Shown: in pieces, positions 4,761-46,035 of the stretch
How the letters are laid out: each line of letters opens with the position of its first letter
Numbering within the stretch: the first letter of the stretch is position 1
Assembly: GCF_004010195.1 (NCBI RefSeq)
Contig: NC_057753.1
Span: 9,344,341 to 9,408,340 of the forward strand
Direction: 5' to 3'
From: Chiloscyllium plagiosum
Lineage: Eukaryota
Length of the DNA: 64,000 bases
The notes under the pieces: generated by a model
What the model was told of the DNA's origin: nothing
Databases searched by the model: none
What the model saw: the letters and a program-made list of their open reading frames with translations, nothing else
Made by a program: the position numbers and the translations under genes

Positions 4761-4774
4761 CCTCTGAAAATTGC

Positions 4775-4846: not shown

Positions 4847-4883
4847 GATGCGATTAAATGCTGACAGCTGAACTGAAAATTTC

Positions 4884-4915: not shown

Positions 4916-4927
4916 GGGTAAGAAGGC

Positions 4928-5552: not shown

Positions 5553-5559
5553 TCAGTCT

Positions 5560-9300: not shown

Positions 9301-9675
9301 ATGACCTCCTCTGGACATTCATTCTGCACTCAGACCACTCTCTTAAAAAAAATCCTTGTCCTGTCTTTATAAACTCTTTTTCTACTCACCTCAAAATATT
9401 TGTTCCCTGATCTTGAAACCTCCACCTGAGGGAAAGGACACCTGTTGTTCACCTCATCCGTATCCCTCATGATTTTATAATCCTCTATAAGGTCATCTCT
9501 CAATCTCCTATGTTCCAGTGAGAAAAGTTCCAGCCTATCCACCCGAGATGTAGGTATATTCATATCCAGTTACGAAGTGTTCAATGCTGGTGTAGGCTGG
9601 AAAGATCAAGTGGTCTACTCCTGTTCCCAATTTTTCCTGGCTGTTACGTTTCTCAGCACCATTCTCCCATTTTTT

Positions 9676-14430: not shown

Positions 14431-14687
14431 CGTGGCATTCCCCCATTTCCAGAGTCTCAGAACTCTTGGCTTTTCCCATGGACAATTTGGGGGAGGGAAA
14501 CAATGTTTCGGTGAGTGTGAAGCTAAAAGTAAACGCAGTGCAGTACTTTAACTGTTTACCCCGGTATACCAGAAGCTCAGGGGTGACCTTACAGACGTTT
14601 ATAGAATCATGAGAGGCATGGGTAGGGTAAATAGACAAGGTCATTCCCTGGGATGGGAGAAGTCCAGAACAGGAGGGGAGTATTTTT

Positions 14688-14715: not shown

Positions 14716-15629
14716 ATTTCTCTGTCCTCTGATCTCCCTGTTCCCACAGAGCTAGATGTTGTCTGTCCTCAGCTCTGCTTTATTTCTGTTGAAGCTTTGA
14801 CCCCCTTTTACATCTTCTGGAGCAATGTAATATTCTGAGCCTCCTGGAAATGACACCTTAGCTATACACCTTCTGATTGTTAATACCTGTATATGGTTAT
14901 CTCTCAATCTGCTAGGCTCCGTTGGAAACATATCCCAGCTTCTTCTTAACTCAAACCCTCCATTACCAGCAACATTCTGGTAAAGTCTGGAATATGGAAT
15001 TGTATCAAATCACATCAATGTACTGTCTGAAACAATCTGGCTGTGTTCTTGCCTGAGATATTGAGAGTCCCTGGTGTAAGTAACTGTTTACCCCGGTATA
15101 TCAGAAGCTCAGGGGTGACCTTACAGACGTTTATAGAATCATGAGAGGCATGGGTATGGTAAATAGACAAGGTCATTCCCTGGGATGAGAGAAGTCCAGA
15201 ACAGGAGGGAAGTATTTTTGGGGTGAGGGAGGCAAGTGTAAGGAATGATCTGCCGGAGGAAGTAGTGGATGGAGGTCCAATTGTAACATTTAAAAGGCAT
15301 CTGCATGGGTGTATGAATCGGAAGAGTTCAGAGGGATATGGGCCAAGTGCTGGTAATAGAGACGAGATTAATTTAGACTATCTGGTCGCCACGGATGAGT
15401 TAGACCGAAGGACCGGTTTTTGTGCTGTGTATCTCTATGACTCTGGGTTGCCCGTAATGTTTGCCATACCTGTATGTTCAGTTTCTGTCTGGTGTCGGCG
15501 CCAATGCCTTGATATCTCATTTCCTCCAACTCCTCACTTCCACCTCCCCAGATGTTAACCATTTCGTGTCTGGTTGTTTCTCAAGAGGCTGCATTGAAGG
15601 TTCATCCTGAATTGACACTTTTGATTTTG

Positions 15630-16129: not shown

Positions 16130-17300
16130 AACGGTGAGCTTGAATTTTATAAACGGTGTCAGTAAAATCCAGTAGTGGACACTGATTTGGTTCAGTCGAT
16201 TTTTTTGCCAAGCGCAATTCACCGAGAGGATGCTGCTGTGTGAAACAGCGTGGGGAATTACTGCAGGGCCTCCTGCACATGGGACACACCGCAACTGATG
16301 TATTTCACCTTCACCAGTTTATTCTTATCTCGGAGAAGAGAGGTTTGATGATTCGGATCATAGCAGCCAGACAGAGAACAGGAGAAGAGCACTCAGACTT
16401 TCAAAAGCTTGTCACCACAGCTGGGTCATCGTGGCCCGTGTATCAGTATGGGATAGTAATCTGCATCTACCATTGCTGTGATGGAGTATCCTGTTGGGCA
16501 GAATATATCCGTTGTTAGATTTTCCACGTTCTGTTAGTCCAACTCCGATTTCACTCAGAATCACAAAATGTGTGACAGCGCAGACTGAGGCCATGCAGCC
16601 CACCTTAGCTCTGCTGGCTCAACACAATATGTAAATAAGTGTCTCATTCTGTCGCCTTCTCCCTCTAAGTCTGCACATTGTTACATTGAACATGCCCACC
16701 CGAATTCCCTTTTGTGTCCATTGAATCTGTCTCTTTGTCACTGTCAGGCAGTGACTTACTGATCCCACTCCCTGTGCGATAACGGTCTTCCTAATGTCAC
16801 TTTTACTTATTTTCGTGATGACTTTCAATCTCTGCCAAATCGTTCTCGATCCTTTCAGGCCTGGGAGCATTTTCACAGCATTATTTCCTCTGTTTAAAAC
16901 CCTCCTGACGTGGAAAACTTCAATCAGGTCAGCTCTCAGCCTTCTGTTCACCAAAGACAACTGCCCCAACTTTCCAATCTACCTTCATGACTGACATTCC
17001 TCATACACGGTACCATTCTCTTCAACCTGTTCAGCGCTGTCTGCAATCACTTCACTTCCCCACTTCTTGAAGTGTCACACTCAGAGTGCAATACAGGTGG
17101 AGGATTCATTCAGACTCGGATTGCGCGGGCGAAAAATCTGCAATACTTGTTTTCACTTTGAGCAAGTGTTTTCCTTCGCCGTGTTCTCTGAAATGACACC
17201 TCTGTCCCATTCCTAATTCAGGCAGTCCGATCTGATTTAACGAAGCGTCTTTTTGAGAAAACTGACCCGGCATTTTTGCTCAGGTCAATTTAAGAAATGA

Positions 17301-17390
17301 GGGTTCGCCTGGGATTGAAACCCGGCACCTCCCACACGTCTGTATAAGCTAGAAAACCCAAAGCTAGCATCATACTCAGACCAACGAGCC
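17301..17390 (-). pseudogene. tRNA-Pro(TGG) pseudogene with 20-nt intron-like insert at 37/38
   Basis: GGCTCGTTGGTCT..GTATGATGCTAGCTTTGGG[TTTTCTAGCTTATACAGACG]TGTGGGAGGTGCCGGGTTTCAATCCCAGGCGAACCC; insert at 17337-17356. Confidence 0.8.
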
Positions 17391-18198
17391 AAAAACCACG
17401 TGTGCGCCCAGCTCCTGAAGCAACTGGGAGTTGTTCAGTACGAAATACATTGTACATTGCTCCCAGAATTACAAGCAGCAAAGACTTTCAAGAACATCTG
17501 CTTCTCATTCTGTCTCCCTGCTCCCAGGACGCTGCTGTTTGTCCCGTCCCCAGGAACCGGGCTTTCTTCACTTGTGGATAACTGAAACATTTCGTTTCTA
17601 CTTACAAGCTGTGCTGGTGGAAGGCAGAGCCCAATCGCTCTTCTGCTCTCTCTCTCACTATTACGTGAGGCAGGAGAAGTCAGTTACAGTCATGCGTAGG
17701 AAATGGACAACTTTGAACTTGTTCCAAAGGTCCTGTTAATGGAGAGATCGAACGATGCTGTGCTGCCGGGACAGAGAGAAATGGACACCGAGACTCTTCC
17801 CTCAGGTAAATTGATATGAGTGCATTTTTGTGCACCCTTCTTGGTGTTCAGAATTTGTCTTGACACAGCAATCCTGCAGAGAGTCTTTTCTTACACGGGC
17901 ATTGATTTCTTTACTGCAGGAATGGACCAAACCAGCAAATCAGGTGTTACAACTTCACCGGTTCATTGCCATCTGAGAGAAGAGGTTTAAAACTTGAGAT
18001 CAGAACACACCGACAGAAAACTGGACCAGACAACTCAGAGCTCCACAAGTGTGCCTGCGCAACTGTATAAATTTGACTTGTGTATCGATGTGACATATTT
18101 AACTCAGAAACCCGAAGTTTTGGGAAGCAGATGACAAGGCAAGGAACAGAACAGAGCGCCGTTAGACGGGAAAGCTGTTATAGACGACATTGAGTGAA

Positions 18199-18261
18199 TA
18201 GGAGAAAATGGTTTCACTTCTGGGTTATGATCCCAACATGCACCCGTTGTGCCATTCTCCT
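18199..18261 (-). pseudogene. tRNA-iMet(CAT) relic
   Basis: AGGAGAATGGCACAACGG..GGGATCATAACCCAGAAGT-GAAACCATTTTCTCCTA; T-arm deletion. Confidence 0.65.
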
Positions 18262-19605
18262 GCATTGCACAGCAGGTTTTCCAGAGAAGTATTCAGCTTT
18301 TCATCTGGCGTGTGACTTGCATGTTGGAGAATGGCGTCAAAAGATCTTCACTGCTGTAGTGTCATGTGCTGTTGTGCAGACATATCCGCAAATATAAACT
18401 CAGAGAGTAATGTACATTGGAGACTCTGAGCCAGCTGAACTTGATCAGTGTGAAATACATTCCACATTGCTCCAAGAATTGCAAGCAGCAGTTTCCAGAA
18501 CATCTGCTTGTCATTCTGTCCCCGGGGCGCTGATGTTTGCCTCATCCCCAGGAACTGGACTCTCTCCACTGGCGGATAATTAAACCAATTTGTTCCTACT
18601 TAGAAGCAGTTCATGGGGTTGAGGGCGCGGGGTGAGTTCATTCGCTCTTCTGCTCTCTCTCTCAATCCCTTGGGGTGAGAGGTATCAGTTACACTAATGC
18701 GTGGGAAGTGAGCAACTTTGATTGTGAACTTTCTCCAAAGGTCTGTTATCGGAGAGATAGAAAGATGCTGTGCTGGCGGATCAGAGAGAAATGGACACCG
18801 AAGACTCTTCCCTCAGGTAAATTCATATGAATACATTGTTGTACAGCCTGCTTGGTGTTCAGAATTCCTCACATGCAGCAATCTTACAGAAATCTATTGC
18901 AAAGTGGGCATCGGTTTCCTTGCTGCGACCGCGCAGCAGTTAACATCTGAGCTCCAAGTGTCCCAGATGAAGAGAATCCGAGTGAAACCTTCACTCACTG
19001 AGAGTCATCCCCACGGCCCTGAGCTGTGGGACTGCAGGCAGTCCAACACAGAAGGGACGGTTAAAAATGAACGTTGTTTCTCCCTCAGTCTGTCTGCCCC
19101 AGAGACAGGCAGTGGGACGGCATAAACGCGTAGCATCATTCTCCCGCCGACAGAGGCGGTTCAGCCCATCGAGTCACGGCGACTGTCTGTCACTTGTCTC
19201 TCTCTCTCTGAGGTTATTCACAATCGGTGATATCTGTCTTAATAGTAAGGGACTGTATCTGAATGGTGATACAGTTTCTGACATGCTGATCGTCTTGTCA
19301 TTCACATCCGAACCGGCGTGACGAATTACTGCAGGGAATGGATGAAACCGCAAGGCATGTGTTTCAACGTTATCAGCTCATTGGCATCTCAGAGAAGTGG
19401 TTTTGCGAATCAGTTCATAGGAAACCGACGAAGAACAGGAGAAGACCACTCAGACCTCCAAAAAGCATGTTACTTGAACCGTGTAAGGTTCACGAGTGTA
19501 TCGGTATGATACAGGGCATTCAGACACTCAGGAAGTAGGTGCAAAGGCAAGATACAGAACAGAGAACAGCTACAAAAGGAGGCTGTTCAAGGAGACATCG
19601 AGCAA

Positions 19606-19662
19606 CAGCAGAGGATGGCTTCGATCCATCGACCTCGGCGTTATGGGCCCAGCACGCTCCCG
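19606..19662 (-). pseudogene. tRNA-iMet(CAT), 5' truncated
   Basis: CGGGAGCGTGCTGGGCCCATAACGCCGAGGTCGATGGATCGAAGCCATCCTCTGCTG, with the initiator-diagnostic GATCG T-loop. Confidence 0.85.
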
Positions 19663-20422
19663 TTATCCACAGGTCCCTTCAGCCGTTCGTCTGGCATGTG
19701 GCATGCACGTTCGAGACTGATGTCAAAGATCTCCACTGATGTCGTGTAATATGCTGTTGCGCAGACATATGGAGGCTGTGTAAATATAAACTTTTTTCTC
19801 ACTTCCCACATTCTGTTGGTCGAACTGTGATTTCATTCTGAGTCACAGCATGTGTCACATCACAGACGGAAGCCATGCGGCCCACCTTTGCTCTGCTGGT
19901 TCGACACAGGAAGGAAACGTGTTTCTCTATTCATATCATTCGCTTGTCTTCTCCGTGTATTTCTGCATATTGTTACTTTAAACATGACCACCGAATTCCC
20001 CGATGCGTCTATTGAATCTGCCTCTTTGTCAATGTCAGATAGGGATTTGCTGACCCTAACATACCCTTCCTCATGTCACTTTTAGATCTGTTCCTCATGA
20101 CTTTAAAACTCTGCCGAATCATTGCCGATCCTTTCAGGCGTGGGAGCATTTTAACTGCATTACTTTCTCTGTCTGGACCCCGCATGACTCAGAAAGCTTC
20201 AGTCAGGCCAGATTTCGAACTTCTGTTCTCCGAGGAGAGCTGTCCTAATTTTTCAATCTACCCTCATCGCTGACATTCCTTAAATACGGCACCACTGGCG
20301 TCAACTCAATATTCCATCATTTCACTTCCTTGCTTTCTGCTCAATTTGTACTCCAAGCCTGGTTTAGCGAAGGTGCTTTTTGAGAAAACTAACCGGGCAC
20401 TCCTGCACAAACCAGGAAACGC

Positions 20423-20505
20423 GGGCTCGCGCCGAGATTCGAGCTCTTGCAAGCCTGCGCAGTCGAAGACCCAAAGCGAGAATCATACCCAGAGACCAAC
20501 ACCGA
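20423..20505 (-). pseudogene. tRNA-Pro(TGG) pseudogene with 18-nt intron-like insert at 37/38
   Basis: GTTGGTCTCTGGGTATGATTCTCGCTTTGGG[TCTTCGACTGCGCAGGCT]TGCAAGAG..CTCGAATCTCGGCGCGAGCCC; insert at 20452-20469; T-stem deletion. Confidence 0.8.
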
Positions 20506-20933
20506 CACCACGCACGGGCACCCACTCTACCTCTTCAACCAGCTGAGTCTTGCTCAGTGTGAAATACATTTGACATTGCTGTGAGAATTCCAAGCGGCAA
20601 AGAGTTTCCAAAACAGCTGCTTCTTATTCTGTCTCCCTGCTGCTGTTTGTCCCGGGACGTCTCTACTGGCAGAGAGTTGAACCATTTTGTTTCTAAACGT
20701 TTCTCTAACACCGGAGTGACCAGTGATAAGCATTGCCCTCCTCAACACAGGATTCAGAGAACAACAGAAGACCACTCAGACCTCCACTAGGGTGTTATCT
20801 CAACTGTGCACATTGGGCCAGTAAATCAATGTGAAATATTTATGTCGAAGATATTTGGGAAAGAGATGAGAAGGCGAGGTGCAGAACAGTGCGCTGTTAT
20901 ACGGGAAAGCTGCTAAAGACGACATTGACTGAA

Positions 20934-20981
20934 TAGGAGAGATGGTTTCCCTCCTGGGTGATGCTCCCATCACGCACCTGC
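20934..20981 (-). pseudogene. tRNA-iMet relic
   Basis: Paralog of 18199-18261 in the same repeat context. Confidence 0.5.
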
Positions 20982-21146
20982 AGACATATCGCCGTCGTGC
21001 AAGTATAAACTCTGTCTAAATTTCCACATTTTTTTTTTCGAACTGTGATTTCGCTCAAAAACAAAAGATTTCAACACTCGCAACATGCAAACTTTACAAA
21101 GTTCTCATAGATATATTTAGCGAACACCTGCAAGAAATTCTTCCAA

Positions 21147-21452
21147 ACTTACCTGGGGAATTTCGGTTTGAGTGGTCTAGAACTTTAAGTGGAAGGACGG
21201 GAAGTTTGCCTCGAGGCTGCGTAATGTGGAGATGTGTTCCCCATGTTAACTGATAGTGGTTCGCCATCCCAGTGCTTCCCGATGCAGGGTTGCCCTGACC
21301 CACAGGGAGGTTTATTTGATAAACTGTCCCGGGGGCTTCCAGTCTCACCATGACGTCATAGTGCGCGCCCCCGATGATGGCCCGCAGCTGCTATGACACA
21401 ATAATGATGCTGGCCCCGGAACATGAATACGAATTAGTTCATGAGTCACGTG
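21147..21452 (-). promoter_or_regulatory. Candidate promoter and first exon
   Basis: CRE TGACGTCA 21351-21358, AP-1/E-box TGAGTCACGTG 21442-21452, consensus donor CAG|GTAAGT at 21153/21152. Confidence 0.35.
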
Positions 21453-21519
21453 GTACTGAATCATTCGATGGAATGTTCTTTCAACTTCACGGATTTAAAT
21501 ATGAGAGGAGGCAAATGGG

Positions 21520-22160
21520 CAGGGTTACATCTCGGGGCCAATCTTCCTTCACTCGCAACACCCCACACCCACCTCCCATTGTCACAAGGCACTTTCCCCT
21601 GCAACTGCCGAATGTGTAACACCTGCCCATTTACCTGCTCCCTCCTGAATATCCAAGGGCTAGAGCATACCTTCCAGGTCAAGCAGCTCTTTGCCACAAC
21701 CTCGTACACTGCATTCGTTGCTCACAGTGTGGTTTCCCCAACGTAGCATGTAGCATAAACTGGGTGACTGCTTCGCAGAACATCTCGGTTCTGCCCGCAA
21801 GAAAAAGCTTCTGGTTGCCTGTCACTTTAACACGCCACCCTGTTCCCTGGCCAACATCTCTGTCTCAGGCATGCAGCAGTGTTCCAGCGAAGCTCAGCTC
21901 CTGATGGAAGACCAAAGCCTCATTTTCCACTTGGAGATCCTATAGCCCACCAGTCTTCAACATCGAGTTCAATATTGTTTGGACCCGAACTCCCCCATGT
22001 CCTTAACCCCTACCACACCCACATGAGGCCTTGTTATCACATCGTCTGCTGTTACACACGACTTATTGTTAGCCAGGAACAGTCTCCATTAATAGTTAGT
22101 CACCCTCCTACACAGATCGTTATTCACTCCTTTGGCCCTCCAATGTTCTCCCTCTGAACT
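21520..22160 (+). mobile_element. Penelope-like element (GIY-YIG region remnant)
   Basis: GTFPCNCRMCNTC zinc-knuckle-like linker, CIRCSQCG, EHL..VACHFN motifs. Confidence 0.7.
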
Positions 22161-23043
22161 GGCAGCAAAGACAGCAATGTGGACTGGTATCCCTGAGCCA
22201 ACTGTTTGTCCCATCTACAGGAACCGGGTTCTCTCCATTGGCGGATAATTAAACCATTTTGCTGTTGCGCTGACATGAGGAGATTGTGTAAATATAAACT
22301 TTTCTGAATTCCCACCTTCCATTGGTCGAACTGTGAGTTCACTCTGAATCACAACACGTGTCACAGCGCATTTGGAGGCCCATCTCAGCTCTGTTGGTTC
22401 TACACAGCAAGTAAATGAGAGTCTCTATGCATATCATTCTCTTGCCTTCTCCCTGTAAATCTCCACATTGTTATTTTGAACATGACCACCGAATTCCCTT
22501 TTGTGTTCGTGAATCTGCCTCTTTGTCACGGTCAGACAGGGATTTACGTATCCGAACCACTCCCTGTGCGAAAATGTTCTTCCTAATGTCAGTTTTACTT
22601 TCTTTCCAAATGCCTTGAAATCTCTGCCATTTTTGGGGAAATTGAAAGGATTATCATTCCTGCACATGAGGCTGAATTGATTTAATTTCTAACGTAAAGG
22701 ACTGCGGATGCTGAGAATCCGAGACAGAAAGAGGAACTGCTGGAGAAACTCAGCAGGTTTGGCAGTACCTGTGGGAGAAAACAGAGTTCTGATATATTGT
22801 CTCTGATTCTCTTTCCACAGATGCTGCCTGACCTGCTGAGTTGCTCCTGCAATTTCTGTTTTTGCTTTTAACTGAAAGTTCATTTCATCTTTCGGAATGA
22901 ACCACCCAGACTCTCCACTTGCAGATATTTAACCCTTTCGAAACCTGTGAAGTGATTGGATTCAAACAAACCCAGCAATAATTCACTCTTTCTCAGCTCC
23001 ACAGGCAGAGAGACCTGGGAAATGAAGCTGTCAATGTGGTTCT

Positions 23044-23126
23044 TTATTCGTGGGCCGAGTGGTTAATGCCACAAACTTGAAATCCATTGCAGTTTCCCCA
23101 TGCAGGTGTGAACCCTGCTGACTACA
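23044..23126 (+). pseudogene. tRNA-Ser(TGA) pseudogene
   Basis: Paralog of 6723-6805; same GGTGTGAACC T-loop lesion; anticodon loop CTTGAAA. Confidence 0.75.
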
Positions 23127-24289
23127 AAATGAGACATGTCGTCAAAAAGAAAGGGAGACTGTTCCCCGGTTTCGTCTTTAAGATTCAAATCAGTGGAGGG
23201 TGAAAGATATTTCACTCACATTGGGACTGGTCGGGAATCTGAAACTCACTGCCTGTCAGGGTGGTACAAGCAGATACCCACAGAGCTGCTTTTGAGGCAA
23301 TCAGTCAAATATTTGGAAATGAGACTAGAACAGTGAGGGGCGTGAAGTCGTGATCGAAATGAAGCAGGCACCTGAGGATTAATTTTATTTGCCAGTGAAA
23401 GATACTGCTTCACAAAGTCGGAACTATGGAAGGGAAGCAGTGACGATGATTATCTTTGGCTGTTCACCTTGTGAATGTTCCCATTGTTGCGCATGTCCGT
23501 GTTAACGTCAGAATTCTGCAGCATGGCGGCGTCAGGTACGCACAGGGCCGGGGCACAATGGCTGACGCATCTGACTCCAGCTATCTGTTTGAAATGCAGC
23601 TCACAGCTTCTTCAAACAGCCCAATTAATCTGTCTCAATGTCCTGAAGCCGGTTTGAATTCTTGATCTGCAGGAACGAGTCTCTTTTCACTGTTTCGGAT
23701 CAGTAAATGTCCCTGAGAACATCAGAGACAAGTCACGGCGCTGTCAGAGGAGGGGAAGCTGAAATAGCCCCACATGCTGGGCACATTTCACTTTCCCCAA
23801 CTCACCGCCCCAACCACTGCGGCTCCTGGGAGTGGAAAGGGAACAAACACCAAAACCCAATCTCATATTTGTGAATCTTCCGAAAATAAGAAAACTGCTC
23901 ATCCTGGGCTGACAGGGGTGATTGTAAATGGCTGTCCAGTCAGTGTCGATTCTTTTTGGCTGAAAATATCTTCCTTATCTCATCCCAGCATTTCTTCCCA
24001 CAGAGAACTGTGCGGCAGAGTTCATGTATATATTTCCTTGGATGGTATTTTGTAAATAATATTCTTTTCTGCTTGTTTTATATCGGGATTTCAGGTTCAT
24101 TAGCGGCTGTTCAAGTGCGTTGGTAGGTTTGTGGGCCACCATGATGCTGAGAGGTTTGAGTTGAGTGGACATCATTTACCAGATGTATTTAATATAATGT
24201 AATGTGGCTACGGTTTCTCCACACGTTGTTTCTGCTTGTGTCAATTTGTTGATGAGAAATCGGCAGATTGGTTTATTGAGTCGGCAAAA

Positions 24290-24933
24290 GTGAGGACTGG
24301 AGATGCTGGAAGCCAGAGTTTAGATCAGAGTGGTGCTGGAAAAGCACAACAGGTCATGCAGCTTCCGAGGAGCAGGAAAATCGACGTTTCGGGCAAAAGC
24401 CCTTCATCAGGAATAGAGGGAGGACGCCTCCAGAGTGGAGAGATAAATTCGGGGTGGGGGGTGTGCTGGGGCGAAGGTAGCAAAGAGTAAAATAGGTGAA
24501 TGGTGGTGGGGATGGAGGCGACAGGTCAGAGAGGAGGGTTTACTGGATAGGTGGGAAGGGAGATTGGCAAGTAGGACAGGTCATGAGGTCAGTGCTGAGC
24601 TAGAAGGTTGGAACTGAGGTAAGGTGGGGGGAGGGGAAATGAGGAAACTGGTGAAGTCCACATTGATGCCCTGGGGTTGATGTGTTCCGAGGTGGAAGAT
24701 GAGGTGTTCTTCCTTCAGGCGTCTGGTGGGGAGGGAGTGGCGGTGAAGGATCCCCACGACCGACATGTCCTCGGCAGAGTGGGAGGTGGGGTTGAAATGT
24801 TGGGGCATAGGGCGATGGGGTTGATTGGTGCGGGTGTCCAGGAGATGTGACTTGACTCTCCAGTCTCCCCAATGTTGTAGAGATCGCATCGGGAGCAATA
24901 GATACAAAAAAATTACATTGGTGGATGTACAGG
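24290..24933 (-). mobile_element. Penelope-like element 3' part with hammerhead terminus
   Basis: Paralog of 4928-5552. Confidence 0.85.
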
Positions 24934-24941
24934 TCTAACGA

Positions 24942-24973
24942 CCGCGGCCTGGATTCGATTCCCGGGCAGCGAA
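24942..24973 (+). pseudogene. tRNA-Glu 3' half relic
   Basis: CCGCGGCCTGGATTCGATTCCCGGGCAGCGAA + GCAATTTTCAG. Confidence 0.6.
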
Positions 24974-25010
24974 GCAATTTTCAGTAGAGCTACGTAGCTG
25001 CATCCATATC

Positions 25011-25082
25011 TCCCTGGTTGTGTAGTGGTTAAGATTCGGCGCTCTCATTGCCGCGGCCCGGCTTCGATTCCCGGTCAGGGAA
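25011..25082 (+). tRNA. tRNA-Glu(CTC), probably pseudogene
   Basis: TCCCTGGTTGTGTAGTGGTTAAGATTCGGCGCTCTCATTGCCGCGGCCCGGCTTCGATTCCCGGTCAGGGAA; G53>C in the B box and D-stem changes. Confidence 0.75.
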
Positions 25083-25099
25083 GCAATTTTCAGCGCGTC

Positions 25100-25870
25100 T
25101 ATTGGCTAACCATTCTTCTTAAATGCGCTGTACATCTATTTATTGATCTTCATAGTTCCTGGGTGCTCCAGCGTGCAGTGGATCGTTGAAATAGTGTCCT
25201 GATTCAGAGTTGTTTGTATGTGGAGGGATGATTGCTTCTGTAGTGAAGTTCTTGGTTCGCGTGCGTTGTTTTCCTGAAGAGGCTGTTTTGAATTTACCAT
25301 TGACTGTTCGCTCTACTGTGACATCGAGAAATGGCACTTTGTTGTTGTTCTCCTCTTTAGTGAATTTTATGCCAGTAAGGATATTGTTGATGGTGTTATA
25401 GGTTTCCTCTAATTTGTTTCATTTTGTGGAAGAGTTGTTGTTCGAGTCTCAGCATTATTGCTTCTGCTAGGATTTCTGAAACTGGTGGTTTCATGGGTGT
25501 TCCTTTGATTTGTTTGTTAGTCTTGATACTGAATATGAAGTGGCTGGTAAAGCACAGCTCCACGAGCTTGACAGTATTATCTTTGCTGATGAAGTTGCTG
25601 CTGTTTGGTGTTTGTGTCTTTGGTTCTTCTAGTAGTGTCTTCAGTTTTCTTTGGCCACGTTGATGTTAATGGATGTGAACAGGGCTGTATGTCAAAGGAC
25701 AGCATTATTCCATCCTCTTCTACCTTGGTGTCTTTGGTGTTCAAGGATTCTTGGATGAAGTAACTGGAGTGGCATGAATCTTCGATTTGGTGTTTTAGTC
25801 TTCAGTAGAGGCCTTTGACTAGTCTGTATTTGGTGTTCCAAGTAGTGAGACTATGGCCTGAGGGGGGCTC
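25100..25870 (-). mobile_element. Penelope-like RT fragment
   Basis: SFDI..LFTSIN, GTPM.PP.S..LAEA.M, PFLDV motifs. Confidence 0.8.
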
Positions 25871-25879
25871 CTGGTTTGA

Positions 25880-26165
25880 AGAAGAGGAGAACAGCAGCAA
25901 AATGCCATTCCTTGATGTCACAGTAGAGCGAACAGTCAATGGGAGAACTTCAAACTAGCATCTACAGAAAAACAACACACACAAACCAAATACTTAACCA
26001 CAGAAGCAATCATTCCAAAACCCACAAACGAAGCTGCATCAGGACATTACTTCAACGAGCCACTACACACTGCAGCACAGAGAAACTACGAAGAACAGAA
26101 GAGAAAGACGTATATAGTGTATTTAAGGAGAACGGGTACCCAATAAACCCAGTCCGCCGATTTCA
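25880..26165 (+). mobile_element. Penelope-like RT thumb fragment
   Basis: PFLDVTVER..TSIYRKTTHT..NH..THKRSCIRTL..NGYP. Confidence 0.8.
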
Positions 26166-26395
26166 AATTGATGCTTCCAAGCTGACTCTCACAAATTCGG
26201 TTTGACCTTCCATTCTTTCCTATTTTATTTTGTTGGTTTTGAAAACTTTCCCAATCCTCTGAGTGAGTGTTGGAGTTGGGAAGTTATGTTGTGGCTGTAC
26301 AGGACATTAGAATATTGTGTAATACTGTTGGAATATTGTGTGCAATTCTGGTCTCCCTCCTATCAGAAGGATATTGTGAAATTTGAAAGGGTTCT

Positions 26396-26893
26396 GAAGC
26401 ACCAATGGGTCCACAGAGGGGAGAGGCCCTTCTGCTGCCCTGAGTGCGGGAAGGCCTTTAGTGATTCCTCTGCCCTGCTGACGCACCAGTTGGTCGACAC
26501 TGGGGAGAAGCCGTTCTTCTGCCCCGAGTGCAGGAAGGGATTTGCTCTTTCCTCTGACCCGCTGGCCCACTGGTGGGTCCACATGGGGGAGAGGTCGATC
26601 AGTTGCCCTACGTGAAGGAAGGCTTTCAGCAATTCCTCAGACCTGCTGAGCCACAAATCCGTCCACACTGGGGAGAAGCCATTTTCCTGCCCCGAGTGCG
26701 GGAAGGGCTTTACTCGCTCCTCCGCCCTGCTGAAGCACCAGTGTGTCCACAGCGGGGAGAGGCCCTTCAGCAGGCCCGAGTGTGTGAAGAGGTTCATGTT
26801 TTCCTGCAACTTGTGGAAGCACCAGCGGGGGCACCAACGCTCCCAGCAATCAGATCCCACCGGTGTTCTGCCTTGGGTCACCCCATGGACTGA
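26396..26893 (+). pseudogene. C2H2 zinc-finger pseudogene (~5.5 fingers)
   Basis: Paralog of 3804-4445; Cys>stop, frameshift, 5' end replaced by CR1. Confidence 0.9.
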
Positions 26894-28262
26894 ACCTCCT
26901 GCCAGTTCTGACAGTGGGTGCAGTGGGAGAGTAATTGGGCTGTTTTTGTTTTCTGCTGGACTGCAATTGCCTCCACCCCCCTCCCCCCCCCCACAACCAC
27001 AACCTCATGGTGGCTCAGGGGCGTCATGGTGACTCAGTGCTTAGCACTGTTGCCTCATGTCATCAGGAACCCAGGATCAATTCCACCCTTGGGGATCTGT
27101 GTGCAATTTGTGGAGGGTAGGAAAATGGATGTGACTGGGTTACTCTTCGGAGGATAAGTACAGATGTGTTGGGCTGAAGGACCCGTTTACACACTGTAGG
27201 AGTTCTACGATCCTATGAGCTTTGCTTTGAGTGGACACTGCTGCTCATTGAGCCCGGGACTGCACATTGGCAATGAAATGATCTAGAGAAACCTAAGACC
27301 GCAAGACCGTCGGAGCAGAAGTTATGCCATTCGGCCTGTCGAGTCTACTCTTCCATTCGTTCGAGTCAAAAAAATTGCAGATGAGATTAGCTACAGTGTG
27401 GAAACAGGCCATTTGTCCCAATAAGTCCACACCGACCCTTTGAAGAGTAACACACCCAGACCCATTTCCCTCTGACTAATGCACCTAACTCTATGGGCAA
27501 TTAAGCATGGCTAATCCACATGACTTTCACATCTTTGGACAGGACCACCCAGAGAAAACCCACGCAGACACTGGGAGAATGTGCAAACTCCTCACAGACA
27601 GTCACCCAAGGCTGGAATCAAACCTGGGTCCCTGGTACTGTGAGGCTGCAGGGGTAACCACTGATCCACTACATATTGCAACCCGAAGTAGGCAAGCAAG
27701 AGGTTGGGAGAATACAGCAAGCCAGGCAGCACCAGAATGTTGAGTAGTCAACGTTTTGGGTATTTACCGTTCTTCAGGACTGAAACGTTGACTTCTCTAT
27801 GAGAAACGATTTACAGAATGTTGCTGGGGGTTGGAGGGTTTGCGCTACAGGGAGAGGCTGAATAGGCTGGGGCTGTTTTCACTGGAGCATCGGAGGCAGA
27901 GGAGTGACCTAATAGAGGTTAAAAATTCATGAGAGGTATGGACAGGGTAATAGACAAGGTCTTTTCCCTGGGATGGGGGAGTCCAGAACTAGAGGGCATA
28001 GGTTTAGGATGAGAGGCGAAATATATTAAAGGGACAACTTCTTCATACCGAGGGTGGTACATATATGAAATGGGCTGCCACAGGATATGGGTCAGGTGGT
28101 GTCAAATGGGACGAGATTAATTTAGGATTTCAGGTCAGCATGGAAAAGTTGGACAGAAGGGTCTGTTTCCGTGCTGTATGTTTCTCTGACTACTGGTCCT
28201 GATGTCAGTTTAAAATAGAGTCCAAGTAAATTTGAAGAGTTCAATCTTGTTGAGCTCACCTC

Positions 28263-28509
28263 ATAGAACATAGAACATAGAACAATACAGCACATTACAG
28301 GCCCTTCGGCCCACAATGTTGCACCGAACATTTGTCCTAGCTTAAGCACCTATCCATGTACCTATCCAATTGCCGCTTAAAGGTCACCAATGATGCTTAC
28401 TCTGCCACTCCCACAGGCAGCGCATTCCATGCACCCACCGCTCTCTGGGTAAAGAATCTACCCCGACATCCCCCCAATACCTTCCACCCTTCATCTTAAA
28501 TTTATGTCC
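28263..28509 (-). mobile_element. Young CR1 3' end insertion, arm-specific
   Basis: (CATAGAA)n tail; absent from the left arm at ~2450; CCTC repeated at both junctions. Confidence 0.8.
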
Positions 28510-28843
28510 CCTCCTCAAATGTTTCAAATGAATCCGTCCGAGTGATACTGTTTAAACATGCTGAGTTGGACAAAACATCCTATCAAGTTCAACACAAACC
28601 CAGAGTTGATGAAGTCAGAAGTCACACGATACCAAGGGGACCAAAACTGATCACAATATTCCAGGTGCAACCACATCAACGTCCAGTATAACTACACTAT
28701 AACTTCCCAACATCTATATTCAATTCCCTAACTGATGAAGGTTAGTGTGCCTAAACCTTTCTTCACTGCCTTGTGTAGCGATGTTAATAGAGAAATAGGA
28801 TCTACTTTAAACTGATCCACAATGCAGCTGCTGGGAACCCAGA

Positions 28844-28915
28844 AGCAGATGAGTGCTGCGTGAGTGTGCTGGGCACATAACACAGAGGTCGATGGGTCAA
28901 AACCATGTGATGCTA
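28844..28915 (+). pseudogene. tRNA-iMet(CAT) pseudogene
   Basis: AGCAGA..GTGCTGGGCACATAACACAGAGGTCGATGGGTCAAAACCAT....GCTA, 72 nt, degenerate acceptor stem. Confidence 0.75.
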
Positions 28916-29679
28916 TTGCTCAATGTCTCTGTCAGCTGCTTTCCTTGGCAAAGGTGCTCTGCTCTGTATCTTGCCTTTGCATTTGCTTCCCAACGCTTCT
29001 ACAGTGGAGGAATGGCAGCTGGAGCACAGGCGCTCAACGACCCCCCGGTGCTGGAGGAAGGTCCAAGCTCCAAGAAGCGGGGTGTAAGGCTGGAGGCTTG
29101 ATTTGCTCAAGGCTTGTATCTATTAACTTATTTAAATGGTACCTACTGTATGGGGCTATGGTTTACATTAAAACCGGAGGATTATGTCAGAGTGCTTGTT
29201 GATATTTAGCAGTTGTAGTTCGTAAAATACACTCCCTGGAGGAGCACCTTCTATGATGCTGCATTTCTTGCCTTCTGCCCATCCCCCATTTGTAATCTCC
29301 CATCTTGATTTTATTTTTTTTTGGTCAAATTTGATTTCATATTAATCAGACTTGGTATTCACTGTGTGCTATTAATTTGTTTCTTCGAATATTGTAAGTC
29401 AAAATTAATGCTGTAATTTCATTTCTGATGTCAGAGTTTGACATTGAATGTGTAGGTGTGAATGCCAGTAAGTTGTGAAAATAAATCAATAACTTGTGAT
29501 TTTATAGCTAAAAGAGCAGTTCACCGCTATCAATGGCATTGTCTCATTTGAAGGTGATGAGTTGAGCCTGACCAACATACCTTTTCATGCAGTCACCCAA
29601 TTTAATTAAAATTTTCTTTCACTTAATTGAAGATAATAACTCTGGCATGCTAAAATTTATACAATTTGTTTATGAGATT

Positions 29680-30085
29680 TATTTATATGTCCATTGCTCT
29701 GCCACATTGGGGAGACTGAATGCCAACTTGCAGAACATTTCAGGGAACAGCTCTCGGACTCCAAAACTAAACGACCCCACCGCCCTGTGGCTGAATACTT
29801 TAACTCCCCCTCCCAATCCGTCAAGGGCATGCAAGTCCTGGGCCGCCTCCACTGCCAAACTCAAAAGCTGTCCTACCTTTACATCTTGCATCCCACCTAT
29901 TCGCTTCACCCTCCATCGTCTTACCTCTCACGATCTCTCCCCACCTCCATCGACCTATTTCATTCACAGCTATCTCCCCTCCAGCCCCATACCCTTCCCA
30001 ATTATCTCTCAGCCCCTTTGACCAACCTTCATTCCTGATGAAGAAGTTATGCTCTAAACCAGGACTGTGATGAAGGAGCATCCTT
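29680..30085 (+). mobile_element. Penelope-like GIY-YIG remnant
   Basis: HIGETECQLAEHFREQL..RPVAEYFNSPS..MQVLG, ending in cctgatgaag. Confidence 0.7.
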
Positions 30086-30220
30086 AATAAGAAAGAGCTC
30101 CTAATTCAGATGTGTTCCCCGTTTGTTTCCCTGTTCTTCTAGAAATAAGAAATGTCCTTTTCTTCCACTAGAAAGTGGTCTTACACTTTGCGGTGTCTGA
30201 AGTGTTATACCACTCCACTC

Positions 30221-30793
30221 CGATTCTTAGGATGATTTTTCACACCTGAGTGCAACATAAATACAGATCATTGATTTCAGCTTTGGTGGAACAAAAAACA
30301 GCAAATTGGTGGATAATTACAGTTAGTGCAAACAAAGCTAGGGATCGATAAAGATTAACTCAGTTCACTTCAATGGCCAAATTACATTTTGAAAACCAAG
30401 TACACTCAGACGACATGTGAAAGTGGTTCATAGGAGGAGAAATGGGGCATTGAAGAGGAGTGAAATGATTGCTTTTGGTCACCGCCACCTTTTAAGAATC
30501 CTTTCAACCTGTTTTTCGGACAATGGTGGCGGTGACCAAAAGCAATCATTTCACTCCTCTTCAATGCCCCATTTCTCCTCCTATGCACCACTTTGACATG
30601 TTGTCTGAGTGTACTTGGTTTTCAAAATGTCATTTGGCCATTGAAGTGAACAGGGTTAATCTTTATCGATCACTAGCTTTGTTTGCACTAACTGTAATTA
30701 TCCACCAATTTGCTGTTTTTTGTTCCACCAAAGCTGGAAACAATGATCTGTATTTATGTTGCACTCAGGTGTGAAAAATCATCCTAAGAATCG
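30221..30793. repeat. Long inverted repeat (foldback), 269-bp arms, 35-nt loop
   Basis: 30221-30489 is the reverse complement of 30525-30793; about 9 mismatches counted by eye, no indels. Confidence 0.95.
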
Positions 30794-31204
30794 TCATATT
30801 ATTATAGTTGACTGAAGCTATAACAGGAGGCATTGTGTGGCAGTTTCAGACTAAAACCTTGGCTGGAAAGAATGTAGATTGATGAGGAAAGTCAAAAAGC
30901 AGAAGCTCTGGCCACAATCTATCAGTCTGGTTTGATTAAGTGGTCGCTCTTCAAAAGCACCTTCCAAGCCATCATCTCAACCACCAAGAGCAGGTAAGTG
31001 TGAACACAGCATTCCAACAGTGAAATATATCGCATTGCTTCTTTGTTATTGATCAAAATCCTGGAATTCGCTCCTGAACATTATTGCAGACCACATCATA
31101 TTTGTGAAGCAAGTTAAGAGGCAGCTCAGCACCACTTTTTCAAGGACAATTTGGGAAGGGTTGTTGGCAGAGCCAATGATATTCACATCTCATGAAATAA
31201 TAAG

Positions 31205-32129: not shown

Positions 32130-32629
32130 NNNNNNNNNNNNNNNNNNNNNNNNNNNNNNNNNNNNNNNNNNNNNNNNNNNNNNNNNNNNNNNNNNNNNNN
32201 NNNNNNNNNNNNNNNNNNNNNNNNNNNNNNNNNNNNNNNNNNNNNNNNNNNNNNNNNNNNNNNNNNNNNNNNNNNNNNNNNNNNNNNNNNNNNNNNNNNN
32301 NNNNNNNNNNNNNNNNNNNNNNNNNNNNNNNNNNNNNNNNNNNNNNNNNNNNNNNNNNNNNNNNNNNNNNNNNNNNNNNNNNNNNNNNNNNNNNNNNNNN
32401 NNNNNNNNNNNNNNNNNNNNNNNNNNNNNNNNNNNNNNNNNNNNNNNNNNNNNNNNNNNNNNNNNNNNNNNNNNNNNNNNNNNNNNNNNNNNNNNNNNNN
32501 NNNNNNNNNNNNNNNNNNNNNNNNNNNNNNNNNNNNNNNNNNNNNNNNNNNNNNNNNNNNNNNNNNNNNNNNNNNNNNNNNNNNNNNNNNNNNNNNNNNN
32601 NNNNNNNNNNNNNNNNNNNNNNNNNNNNN
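32130..32629. other. Assembly gap (500 N)
   Basis: N run. Confidence 0.99.
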
Positions 32630-35200: not shown

Positions 35201-37049
35201 ATGTGTGGAGGGGTGAGGAGGGGGCAGAGGGATGAAGAATGGAGTAGAATTAAGGGGAAGCTGGATACAGACACGAGGGGGAAAGGAAGAGAAGGAAATA
35301 TAAGAATTGTACAATAAGTGACAATAAATGACTTGCATGCAGAGGGATCTGTGCATATAGATCCCTGAAAAAGTGACAACAGAAGTCGGTATGGTGGTCA
35401 AGAAGGCACATAGTACGCTTGCCTTCCCTGAGTGTAAGAGTTGGCAAGATGTGTTACAGCTACTTATTCCAGCCACATTCAGAATATTGCATGCAGTTCT
35501 GATCAGCACCCTACCAGAAGGACGTGGACACTCTGGGAGAGGGTGCTTTAGTCAAGGGTTAATGTCGAGTAATAGGAGTAAGGGAATGAGTCTTGTCGGT
35601 TACTCTTCAGAGGGTCAGTGTGCACATGATGCGCCAAATGGTCTTTTCCACACTGTAGGGATTCTATGATACCCAGAGGCTTTTTTATTTGCCAGGGTGA
35701 AAAGGTCAACTACAAGAGGGGACAGGTTCAAGGCGAGAGGAGCACAGTCTAGGGGAGAAGTTGAGGGGGGGGGGCGGGGAGGCTTTTCGCAGAGGACTGA
35801 TGGTTGGTGGAAGCAGGCACCTTAACAATGCTTAAGGTGTATCTTGACAGACATGAAGGGGAGGCGAACAGAGGGATAAATACCGCACATGGGCAATAAA
35901 TAGCAGGTCCAAGTGAGGATTTAGAATTGGCACAGGCTTGACGGAGTGCCTAAGCCAAATAAGGGCTTGTGACTGTGCTGTATTGTACTGATGCAGGTTT
36001 TCCCCACTACCTTTCATAAGGCAAAATAGCGTAAAGCGAAGAAGCAATTAATTCATTTATATCGTAGTCAAATGTTTTGACTACTTTTTAAGGTTAAATT
36101 TAGGGGGTCAACTGTTACATGGATACTATTTCTGAGGGGCTGAAATTCATGCCTGTCAAGATTCATACCGCATCATAAGCAGAAGCTCAACTGATGAATA
36201 AAGCAAAAAAAAAACCTAATTATGATAATTCTGAAAACTGAGTGAAATGTACAGATAACGGACTAGAAGACGGGAGCAGAGCCGAACAACCGACAGGCTG
36301 CAAAGCTGGAGTGGAACATGACGGCCAGCACACTGACTCACAAACATTCGTCTGTTGTCTTATGAAGAACTAGGGTCAACGTTTACATGATCAGACTACT
36401 TTTCACAACACTTGCAAAAAAAATCAAACACGCCCAATTTGCCATGCATGGAGAACAGGAAATATACTAAAGCTTTCCAGCATTCAGGCACAACTATACA
36501 TATGCACATGTCCATATAAATACTGGGTAGGTTGATCCTTTGGAAGATAACAATCGCAAAGAAGTGAAACTCTTCAACAAGATGCTGGATTTGGTAGAAT
36601 GATTAATTAGTATGCTCACTCTCCTCCCTCCATCACATCACTGGGCAAGACATAACCCTAGGATCTAAATAACACACACACACACACACAATCCTACCCA
36701 ATGACTGCATGTGACCACATTTTACGTGCAATTACTTCAAATCACATTTATAAAACATAACCAGAGAGGTTTACACAGGCTCTCGTACACAATATTGCCT
36801 GTGACCTTCTACAGCGCTGTGAAGTGCTGCAAATCCCATGATGACAGTATTTCATATCCAATGTGTTAAATAACATTGTATATCTTATAAAAAGAGGTAT
36901 ATATACACACATTATACATAATTGAATATCGGAACAGTTCAGTCAGATGGTACAGCCTGCCCTCCTACATGGATTATAGAAGGTGTATGGAGGATTAGAT
37001 GGTGATTCTAATAGAAATTATGTTTGTTTTAGGAATGGGAGTGATTGTG

Positions 37050-37440
37050 GCTCCAGGCTAATGGCGATCCGCCTTATCCCCCGGGTTCCCCCTCAGCCCA
37101 GCCCGGTACCTGGTAGAGTGAAGCCGCGGGTAGCTCCAGGCTCACGGTCCAGCACAGCACCGAGTGCAGCCTCTCCTCCCTGTCTGCCCCCCCTCCCTCC
37201 GTCAGAAACCGCCCGCTGAGTCGATGAGAAAACCGCAGCCTCGCGCCGCCATCTTTGTTTTTCTTCTTCTTTCTGTCTCCTCCTTCAGTGACACGCGTCA
37301 TCCACGCCCCGCCCAATCAGAGCGCACCTTACTCCACCTGACCAATGGCGTCAGGTTTTGCGGTCAGCGCTGGTTGTTACTGACAGATCTTGTGTCCAAT
37401 TGCCAATTTGGGATAAAAATGGCGGGAGCCACAATTTCTT
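37050..37440 (-). promoter_or_regulatory. CpG-island promoter with non-coding first exon (possibly bidirectional)
   Basis: YY1 GCCGCCATCTT 37245-37255, GC box 37307-37314, CCAAT 37313 and 37342, opposite YY1-like AAAATGGCG 37416-37424, donor CAG|GTACCG at 37110/37109. Confidence 0.65.
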
Positions 37441-37639
37441 TTCCCTGGGGTTGCACATCTCATTCCCTTTGCTTTTTCTCCTCCCCAGGGGAGGGGAATC
37501 CCAAACTAGAGGGCACAGGTTTAGGGTGAGAGGGGAAAAATATAAGAGGGTCCCAAGGATTAGAAAAAAAATGTGAAAGTTAATTCACCTCAAGAAAAGC
37601 CCTCTCTCACGACCTGAACAAAATAGATTGTTCACTAAA

Positions 37640-43594: not shown

Positions 43595-43882
43595 TTAGTG
43601 GGAGGTACGGTGGCACAGTGGTTAGCACTGCTGCCTCACAGCACCAGAGACCCGGATTCAATTCCCGCCTCAGGCGACTGTGTGGAGTTTGCACATTGTT
43701 TGCGTGGGTGTGCTCCGGTTTCCTCCGACAATCCAAAAATGTACAGGTTAGGTGAATTGGCCATGCTAAATTGCCCGTAGTGTTAGGTGAAGGGGTAAAT
43801 GTGGTCAGGGTGGTATAAGCTTCGGTGGGTCGGTGTGGACTTGTTGGGCCGAAGGGCCTGTTTCCACACTGTAAGTAATCTA
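43595..43882 (+). mobile_element. HE1 SINE
   Basis: Well-preserved head GGTGGCACAGTGGTTAGCACTGCTGCCTCACAGC and tail AAGGGCCTGTTTCCACACTGTAAGTAATCTAA; AACAC repeated at both flanks. Confidence 0.9.
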
Positions 43883-44334
43883 AACACCTCATCTGCCTGG
43901 GCAGCCTTCAGCTTGGAGGACTCAACACGGAGTTCTCCAATTTCAAATACCTCACTTCCTTCTCCCAACCACTCATTTTCACGTCTCCCTGCCACCAACC
44001 AGATTCCTTCCTGATCAACTAGGTCATACCCTCTACGTGCCTTCACCTATCCCCAACTTTACCACCCTGCCTCCAGCACTCCCCCTCCACCCATCCCTGA
44101 AGAAGGGTTACACCCAAAATGTCGACTTCTCCATCTCCTGATGTTGCCTGGCTTGCTGTGTTCTTCCAGCCTCCTGCCTGTCTATTTTGCCAATTGCGAC
44201 ACAGACCTGGGCTAACCTATCCAGAGTCTGTCCGCTCCCGGATTCACTCCCTTTCCTTTCAGTTGCTGCAAGTCAACAATTGAACCCCAAAAAGAAAAGG
44301 AAATGGAAAAGGGGTCGAGAAAAGAGACTGTCGT

Positions 44335-44640
44335 ACTCACAGATCTTCGATAGAAGAAAGAATTTGCAGTCTGGCTGAAGCGCAATCTTCTTTCAGAAAG
44401 AGGAGCAAGAGCAGCTTCAGCAGCTCATGGTCCAACTTCCGCATTCAGACAATTAGGTGGCTCTGACTGGCAGGAAGACCTGTCTCCTTCCGGTCCTCCA
44501 GTGCTTTCTATTGATCTATCAAGAGAAAGCCACGCACCCTTTATTTGCGGACAGCGAAGAGGATGCACAGTGTTTTGCTGACACCGGTGGGCATGCGCTC
44601 TGCGTTGCTGACACCGGCAAACATGTGTAGTATGCTTTGT
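44335..44640 (-). promoter_or_regulatory. Decayed ZF-type promoter and exon 1 (orphan)
   Basis: Homologous to 52095-52400; donor GTGAGT at 44340-44335; NRF1-like motifs partly decayed. Confidence 0.5.
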
Positions 44641-44887
44641 AAATACTGCTGGTGTTACTGACAAAGTTTAAGTGACCAAATGCCAACAGGGGAAAAATGG
44701 TGATCACCATAATATTTTTCCCTGAGCCTCGACATTTTATTGCTTTTCCATTTTGTCTGGCTGCTCAACTTTTGGAGATCTTTTCCCCTTGTTTAGAGAG
44801 AGTATGTCTCTTAATTACATGGGTGAGGAGATGGAAGAATAGCGTGGGACTGTTTTCCCTTGCACGCCAGAGTCTGAGGGGTGACTT

Positions 44888-45190
44888 TTTTTTAGATTAG
44901 ATTACTTACAGTGTGGAAACAGGCCCTTCGGCCCAACAAGTCCACACCGCCCCGCTGAAGCGCAACCCACCCATACCCCTACATGTACCCCTTACCTAAT
45001 ACTACAGGCAATTTAGCATGGCCAATTCACCTGACCTGCACATCTTTGGACTGTGGGAGGAAACCGGAGCATCCGGAGGAAACCCACGCAGACACAGGGA
45101 GAATGTGCAAACTCCACACAGTCAGTCACCTGAGGCGGGAATCGAACCCGGGTCTCTGGCGCTGTGAGGCAACAGTGCTAACCACCTTGT
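44888..45190 (-). mobile_element. HE1 SINE, young
   Basis: Near-consensus, intact B box GGTTCGATTCC, (TAATC)n/poly(A) tail. Confidence 0.9.
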
Positions 45191-45304
45191 AGACTTACAT
45201 AAGATTAATTTATAAGACTAATCAGCAATCTAGTTTTGACCAATACACCGTATCAGTTGCATGACACTATGATCTTTTGCTATAAATTCTGTGTCTTATG
45301 ATCC

Positions 45305-46035
45305 TGCTCCACAGCTACTTGATGAAGGAGCAGCTCTTCAAAAACTAGTGCTTCCAAATAAACCTGTTGGACTTTAACCTAGTGTTGTGTGATTTTTAAC
45401 TTTATCCAACCCAGTCCAACACCGGCTCCTCCACATCATTTCTAGTGAACACAGCCCAGACTTCTTGGTGCTGCCAGTAAACGTTACAATGGCATGATGC
45501 AGTGCCTACACTCTTGAAAGATTTACCATTTCTAACGATACCAGCTACTCATTCACTGCTCCTTCTGATACGCGACATTGGAAACTTAGTGCAGGAGGCT
45601 GAAGGAAATGAGCAGCTTTAAAACAAAAACCTCTTGGAGCTCAAAGCTTTCAATGAGAGTCTGAGCCCCTGCTCCGCAGCTACTTGATGAAGGAGCAGCG
45701 CTTCAAAAGCTAGTGCTTCCAAATAAACCTGTTGGACTTTCACCTGGTGTTGTGTGATTTTTAACTTTATCCAACCCAGTCCAATACCGGCTCCTCCACA
45801 TCATTTCTAGTGAACACAGCCCAGACTTCTTGGTGCTGCCAGTAAACGTTACAACGGCATGATGCAGTGCCTACACTCTTGAAAGATTTACCATTTCTAA
45901 CGATACTAGCTACTCATTCACTGCCCCTTCTGATACATGACATTGGAAACTTAGTGCAGGAGGCTGAAAGAAATGAGCAGCTTTAAAACAAAAACCTCTT
46001 GGAGCTCAAAGCTTTCAATGAGAGCCTGAGCCCAG
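45305..46035. repeat. Direct tandem duplication, ~365-bp unit x2, each starting with a degenerate hammerhead-type Penelope end
   Basis: 'cagctacttgatgaaggagcagc...gctttcaatgagag' repeated. Confidence 0.85.

Follow-up and report, generated by a model that had tools for sequence, protein, structure and literature searches.

Fold-back of a broken DNA end can write an inverted copy of neighbouring sequence into a genome. At induced double-strand breaks in yeast, local fold-back produces templated inverted insertions (Yu et al. 2024, PMC11724301). In the main text of that study, priming involved an imperfect 10-bp inverted microhomology around a 41-nt loop with 2 nt trimmed from the 3' end. The copied length was mostly <14 and ranged from 10 to over 150 bp, the far junction showed 0-5 bp of microhomology, and the process depended on Pol delta and end joining. 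Template-switch events have also been collected in apes, where the main text reports a median of 12 and a maximum of 128 copied bases for the gold-standard set (Walker et al. 2021, PMC7954356). Strand switching at natural short inverted repeats is likewise the basis of the PDSM model of library chimeras, which are read-level, low-frequency products (PMC10908179). Long inverted repeats can have a function: at Drosophila hairpin RNA (hpRNA) loci, Dicer-dependent 21-22-nt siRNAs from such repeats repress a homologous target (PMC10317233). Chen et al. 2017 (PMC5398296), under a loose definition, counted hundreds of thousands to millions of inverted duplicates per vertebrate genome, with 6-8% of them expressed in mouse and human.

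Here we describe a hairpin in a stretch of shark DNA, all 64 kb of which we call the window. Its arms (30221-30492 and 30522-30793) are 272 bp each, are 96% complementary with 10 mismatched pairs and no indels, and stand 29 nt apart (30493-30521). The initial annotation gave a 269-bp stem, a 35-nt loop and 9 mismatches, the values obtained when the identical hairpin is cut off at the T:T pair that adjoins the loop. No other short-spacer inverted repeat of the window comes close in strength: this one has 165 shared 14-mers on one diagonal (the runner-up has 40), and its stem contains perfect duplex runs of 53, 64 and 61 bp. Folded as RNA, 30200-30820 has a predicted energy of -479.4 kcal/mol (z = -68), which 0/20 shuffles equalled. 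Only 3 of the 10 mismatches are G-U on the plus strand, and no second copy of the arm was found within the window. The coordinates of the hairpin and its surroundings are collected in the table.

Table. Parts of the hairpin and neighbouring features, in order along the window
Feature	Position	Strand	Remarks
Decayed exon, homologous to first part of P0001/P0002	29015..29111	+	tblastn 82-88% over 33-34 aa, E ~1e-14
Degenerate fragment of the window's presumed Penelope-like repeat	29780..30060	+	69-79% matches to 5077-5399 and 24438-24814
Outer junction, left flank to inverted copy	30219..30221		<=1 base microhomology, or a single untemplated base; loss of 5-7 ancestral bases
Left arm, new inverted copy of 30530-30793	30221..30484		264 bp, 9 substitutions, no indels; skipped by contigs of relatives
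Left half of older short inverted repeat (putative fold-back primer)	30485..30492	+	pairs 7/8 with 30522-30529, one T:T
29-nt loop, TAAGAATC at its start	30493..30521	+	ancestral, from relatives' contigs
Right half of older short inverted repeat	30522..30529	+	found in relatives
Right arm, ancestral template	30530..30793	+	continues into right flank in relatives; TAAGAATC again at 30785-30792
Following exon of P0001, decayed	30818..30937	+	frameshift and stop; tblastn aa 48-62 and 52-88, two frames
500-N scaffolding gap	32130..32629		between hairpin contig and 37.2-kb promoter-like region

Pfam searches in 6/6 frames of 30060-30961 returned no family at cut-off, and at the hairpin no Rfam family attained its gathering score. 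An snoRNA or miRNA origin was rejected: all 10 Rfam matches up to E = 5 were under the gathering score, and the miRNA matches sit on the stem and are most likely driven by structure. The best of these, a sub-threshold mir-577 match at 30443-30572 (61 of 100 bits), shows some letter resemblance besides structure and is probably due to chance. A coding origin of the arm was also rejected, with no Pfam match at cut-off in 12/12 frames, and the zinc-finger-like look of one arm frame was without Pfam support. A 22-letter arm pattern matched 0 stretches in metagenome contigs, and a narrow literature search turned up nothing published on this locus or on hairpin RNAs of sharks.

Contigs of relatives revealed the site as it was prior to the event. 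Three contig runs (X4, X18 and X19, from related organisms A, B and C) and one RNA run (X21) were aligned to 30090-30545; the right arm beyond 30545 and the right flank were visible solely via the mirror alignment and loose ends. Part of 30060-30955 was present in 20 of the 24 runs listed, from three organisms, and none of them contained half or more. The best run contained a 0.40 share of the words, where a single-arm locus of identical sequence would be expected to give ~0.75; this share implies ~98% identity and indicates that the source material is not among the runs. We found that 8 contigs, spread over all three contig runs, join 30205-30221 straight to 30484-30490 and skip the left arm. 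The closest contigs have 7 other letters between 30219 and 30485, where the left arm would be. In X4, X18 and X19 the loose ends before 30221 are the reverse complement of the right flank, and the loose ends listed (15 of 22) are homologous to the window's own flanks. The outer junction was bridged by none of the 24 pieces listed of 137, and read depth dipped there in all three contig runs. Joints on opposite strands were discarded as evidence of a hairpin, since single-arm contigs give them when the reference consists of the left arm and the start of the right arm. The ancestral order was left flank, ~7 bases, loop unit, right arm and right flank. Because the relatives have one arm, continuous with the right flank, the left arm (30221-30484) is the new copy. 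Conservation in related sharks, which the initial annotation had raised, was not observed: the hairpin was not seen in the contig runs of organisms A, B and C, where a relative's hairpin copy could be missed, the locus being repeated and rare variants being lost from contigs. At such a multi-copy locus the contigs used may represent a copy other than the exact orthologue.

The repeated nature of the locus is apparent in the contigs themselves. Each contig run carried at least 2 sequence classes over identical positions. An example of the close class had 1 difference in 105 letters at a depth of 49 in X4; a diverged class had 23 differences in ~184 letters plus a 15-bp insertion, at a depth of 277 in the same run. 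Both classes reach into the left and right flanks. When the sites left of the 15-bp insertion were counted, arm-mismatch sites excluded, 20 diverged-class differences fell in codon phases as 8/6/6 (p = 0.82). By these patterns the hairpin DNA belongs to an unrecognised repeated unit that appears non-coding. The runs look shallow (mean record 75-82 letters), and on that footing the family would have tens to over a hundred copies, a figure that is a guess, as depth does not measure copy number. The description of this stretch as non-TE DNA thus needs qualifying: no recognised transposable element is present, but the stretch is multi-copy in relatives and hence not unique DNA.

In our view, the hairpin is probably a young, real and likely neutral local inverted duplication, created when a DNA break or a stalled fork gave rise to fold-back synthesis. 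Most likely the duplication hit one copy of a multi-copy non-coding locus and is a scar of DNA repair. The event would have started from the site found in relatives, which consists of left flank, ~7 bases, a 45-nt unit with the halves of an imperfect 8-bp inverted repeat at its ends, and right arm. A break just left of the 45-nt unit would expose a bottom-strand 3' end. This end would fold back by pairing at the 8-bp repeat, with the 29 nt in between as its loop, and its unpaired 5-7-base tail would be trimmed. A polymerase would then copy 264 bases of adjacent DNA backwards, giving an arm of the present length. Finally, the new strand would be displaced, and end joining with 0-1 base of microhomology would attach it to the left flank. 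The 9 substitutions now found between the arms, most of them on the new arm, may reflect error-prone synthesis followed by drift. The resulting hairpin could extrude a cruciform or fold as RNA, which would be a by-product. A switch at a fork and the repair of a break are indistinguishable from sequence alone.

The putative primer repeat, including its T:T mismatch, is already in relatives without the left arm and pairs at 7/8 positions, and such a repeat starts at only 50/4859 random window positions. As a DNA hairpin on the bottom strand it is weak (-2.4 kcal/mol), so its annealing would be transient. The initial annotation had pointed out that TAAGAATC occurs both in the loop and at the outer arm end, and it is indeed present at 30493 and 30785, with its complement at 30222. 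The template switching deduced from it holds as far as a fold-back or template-switch origin goes; the primer, though, would be 30485-30492 / 30522-30529 and not TAAGAATC. Both copies of TAAGAATC lie on one strand, already in the relatives' single-arm state, and therefore cannot pair mutually to guide either switch. We also rejected TAAGAATC as switch homology: with both copies on one strand and no repeat of the loop past the right arm, we found no four-point arrangement in which it is used. The copy stops 1 base past the second TAAGAATC, with an empirical chance of 328/61817 that was judged post hoc, and the fold-back model leaves this end point without explanation.

The substitutions between the arms allowed the new copy to be compared with its template. 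Over the 264-bp copied stretch there are 9 substitutions and no indels, with a transition:transversion ratio of 3:6. We rejected the transversion excess as a sign of sequencing error, as the local background is near 1:1 (77:76, 137:149 and 64:74 in three older duplicated blocks of the window). At 30274, 30277 and 30412 the right-arm letter was found at all depth in all three contig runs. It was also found at 30362 in X4 and X19 and in 242/408 in X18, and at 30419 in X4 and X18 and in 56/92 in X19. Relatives thus carry the right-arm letter wholly or mostly at 5/5 mismatch sites with rows shown (p = 0.06); at 30342 the row shown has a third letter. Counts of change types suggest that three X4 changes are of the types expected if 30342, 30360 and either 30383 or 30428 had the right-arm letter. 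T>G places numbered none in X18 or X19 and one in X4, and these counts suggest that at 30383 and/or 30428 it is the left arm that keeps the relatives' letter and the right arm that differs. Together, shown and count-based sites would assign 6 to 8 of the 9 changes to the new arm (two-sided p between 0.51 and 0.04). The new arm also seems to exceed clock expectation, with ~10/264 differences from organism A, part of them deduced from counts, vs ~3/264 (Fisher p = 0.09). The mismatch density was not significantly different from that of the window's near-identical duplicates (p = 0.08 for four, 0.17 with a fifth). The initial annotation had held that the mismatches argue against a library chimera. 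That argument is weak, with changes mainly on the new arm, as error-prone copying gives in vivo or in vitro; the one or two probable old-arm changes speak for a genuine locus in which both arms have aged.

Confirmation of the hairpin is limited to this assembly, and we consider it distinctly likely, even more so than the mechanism proposed for it, that it is real in the genome. It is rather unlikely to be a library or assembly artefact, in which a chimera folded back at the naturally occurring 8-bp repeat, or a segment of another allele or paralogue in reverse orientation, was incorporated into the assembly. Multi-copy DNA is difficult to assemble. Within the window there are 4 N-gaps, and several duplicates on the same strand are 96-99% alike, perhaps as by-products of assembly. 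Among the pieces listed, the hairpin junctions are in none of the runs (three contig runs, organisms A-C), although contigs drop rare variants, so that one family copy may be missing there. The skew of changes to the new arm (5/5 shown sites) would also suit an artefact, but the arms differ by substitutions only, the left arm appears to keep the outgroup letter at one or two sites, though another allele could do likewise, and the 3:6 ratio sits in a window with a near-1:1 background. An artefact would moreover need a second, independent join at 30220 without assembly-scale overlap. Chimeras, too, start at natural inverted repeats (PMC10908179). This likeness is shared with the in vivo model and does not discriminate; unlike the chimeras described there, the shark hairpin has a new arm of 264 bp and a second junction, and it sits in assembled sequence.

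The surroundings of the hairpin suggest a decayed gene-like host. A 40-residue frame at 28979-29098 matches two uncharacterized Chiloscyllium punctatum proteins (P0001 and P0002), which together comprise six RefSeq accessions (XP_072410994/5 and XP_072411193-6) and are spliced models in that species; the match marks the window as DNA of a bamboo shark or of a close relative. With tblastn, residues 17-50 of P0001 align to 29015-29116 and residues 48-88 to 30814-30937. The first exon shows decay, with an in-frame stop, GC at the donor position (29112-29113) and no match for the first 16 residues; CpG observed/expected is 0.35 over 28840-29120. An acceptor AG may lie at 30816-30817, 24 nt past the end of the right arm, which would place the hairpin in a plus-strand intron at 29112-30817; the host is a copy, now decayed, of a transcript that is spliced in a bamboo shark. 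Among 1.84 billion representatives no convincing relatives of P0001 or P0002 were found, and a parent protein for P0001 was not found (2/22 candidates; 3 matches, one weak at E = 6.5e-4). The P0001-type transcript is probably non-coding and its open reading frame incidental. The transcript family, represented at 28995-31000 on the plus strand, is multi-copy and apparently specific to bamboo sharks. Directly upstream of the decayed exon lies one of three related stretches (28859-28990, 19531-19662 and 18114-18214) that are ~75% alike; ARAGORN and Rfam made no call there, and we take them to be decayed tRNA-Met copies.

The same intron is central to whether the hairpin is a functional RNA, which would yield siRNAs against family copies, undergo ADAR editing or control the acceptor 24 nt downstream. 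We hold this to be very improbable. In theory the predicted 272-bp duplex would suit Dicer or ADAR well, the intron around it belongs to a locus with C. punctatum homologues that have spliced RefSeq models, and homologous copies would be potential targets. By analogy, new hpRNAs of Drosophila are born beside their targets (PMC10317233). The host copy, however, looks decayed (stop, frameshift, GC donor and low CpG ratio), the arm is intronic, so that a target would be missing from mature transcripts, and the hairpin, not seen in three relatives, is unconserved. The low share of G-U pairs among its mismatches and the Rfam miRNA matches far under gathering scores also count against a function, and in vertebrate genomes inverted duplicates abound, for the most part without expression (PMC5398296). 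In X21 (single-cell polyA RNA of organism A, ~2/100 of the run read) 1 read aligned among 12,955,460 records, in part and at 90-95% alike; it counts neither way for expression, as the contigs of organism A show the single-arm state only. Transcription from a minus-strand CpG promoter at ~37.2 kb, as initially suggested, is not established: a 500-N gap intervenes, and the homologous spliced transcript is on the plus strand. The stretch at 37000-37500 on the minus strand is CpG-rich and promoter-like (observed/expected 0.66) with a likely first-exon donor near 37110, and no exon was found downstream of that donor. That the locus is a vertebrate hairpin-RNA gene at birth, formed by fold-back in an intron with a ~270 bp duplex 24 nt upstream of an acceptor, is equally improbable; if it were true and the copy were transcribed, RNA matching other family copies would feed Dicer or ADAR, or the acceptor would be switched off.

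Mobile elements offer two further explanations. The intron also contains, 160 bp from the hairpin and outside its arms, a fragment of a repeat that we take to be Penelope-like, and the hairpin could be a by-product of the activity of such an element. Proximity speaks for this, but 0/18 hammerhead-core matches of the window, a motif that we assume to mark Penelope-like terminal repeats, fall within 30221-30793, the arms match no Penelope-like piece in the window and the DNA copied is the local intron, which makes such an origin most doubtful. Target-site duplications are among the typical features of MITEs and foldback transposons. That a palindromic non-autonomous DNA transposon of this kind was inserted is scarcely credible: its size, long arms and short spacer are MITE-like and the arm sequence is multi-copy, but the 'empty site' of relatives still has the loop and an entire arm, unbroken towards either flank, the repeated unit reaches into both flanks, none of the contigs listed has a palindromic copy or foreign flanks, and, as already noted in the initial annotation, there is no target-site duplication, only a 2-letter TC match.

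The wider window contains C2H2 zinc-finger gene pieces (named from their translations), three tRNA genes, many retroelement fragments and four N-gaps, three of them of 500. A 5-6 kb inverted segmental duplication (2316-7179 / 22672-28650) is 81-88% alike, and both copies contain a tRNA-Glu gene along with a C2H2 zinc-finger gene that is broken. Among open C2H2 zinc-finger frames, the longest of the window lies at 46719-47555 on the minus strand (278 aa stop to stop). Repeated units of ~500 bp, 74-79% alike (17431-17917 / 18441-18926 and 16521-17026 / 19803-20305) and with tRNA-like remnants, lie within 16130-22700 and represent a decaying tRNA-cluster repeat. Another open frame, at 62714-63079 on the minus strand, adjoins a CpG-rich stretch and, in our assessment, presumably resembles exon 1 of a QSOX sulfhydryl oxidase, apart from an altered CxxC region. 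The same-strand 96-99% duplicates are at 9674-10544, 11820-12453, 45303-46033, 12965-13332 / 14716-15083 and 14549-14687 / 15081-15219, and may be uncollapsed haplotype or gap-filling by-products of assembly. A second inverted pair, with a long spacer, spans 43661-45185 (centre near 44390, 83% alike over 290 bp) and is built of a repeat present elsewhere in the window. The hairpin is most likely one more inverted-duplication scar, of little consequence. Its value is that the pre-event state is legible in three relatives, and hence the putative primer, the trimmed tail and the far junction are all visible. Were the skew of substitutions to the new arm real, it would hint at strongly error-prone fold-back copying in the germline; were the copy transcribed and diced, a long hairpin RNA against a repeated locus could arise in one step in a vertebrate.

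The locus can be set beside the known systems as follows. Like the Drosophila hpRNAs of PMC10317233, it is a long foldable inverted repeat that is young, is restricted to a lineage and derives from part of a multi-copy locus next to it; unlike them, its arm is intronic and non-coding, its host copy looks decayed and it is known only as sequence. With the vertebrate inverted duplicates of PMC5398296 it shares arms with a short spacer, but that set takes arms from 10 nt and includes no shark, whereas the shark hairpin is long and near-perfect and its origin has been reconstructed. The ape events of Walker et al. resemble it in switch order (1-4-3-2 / 3-2-1-4, giving one inverted repeat; the shark order was read by hand), in the use of a nearby template polarised by an outgroup and in the lengthening of a quasi-palindrome into a long palindrome, and differ in length, with 264 bases copied in the shark vs their maximum of 128 (a main-text range; supplements may hold longer events). 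The likeness to the yeast insertions of Yu et al. extends to several steps: the shark insert is the reverse complement of adjoining DNA and is lacking in the ancestral arrangement, an imperfect short inverted repeat would serve as primer around a loop of tens of bases, few bases are lost, far microhomology falls within 0-5 bp, and a longer inverted repeat is left behind. The differences are that 264 bp were copied vs up to about 150 in their main-text ranges, to which the supplements may add longer events, and that a natural vertebrate locus with 9 substitutions between its arms is compared with an induced yeast break. On these main-text ranges, the hairpin would be a natural example of break-associated fold-back copying that is longer than those of the yeast and ape sets.
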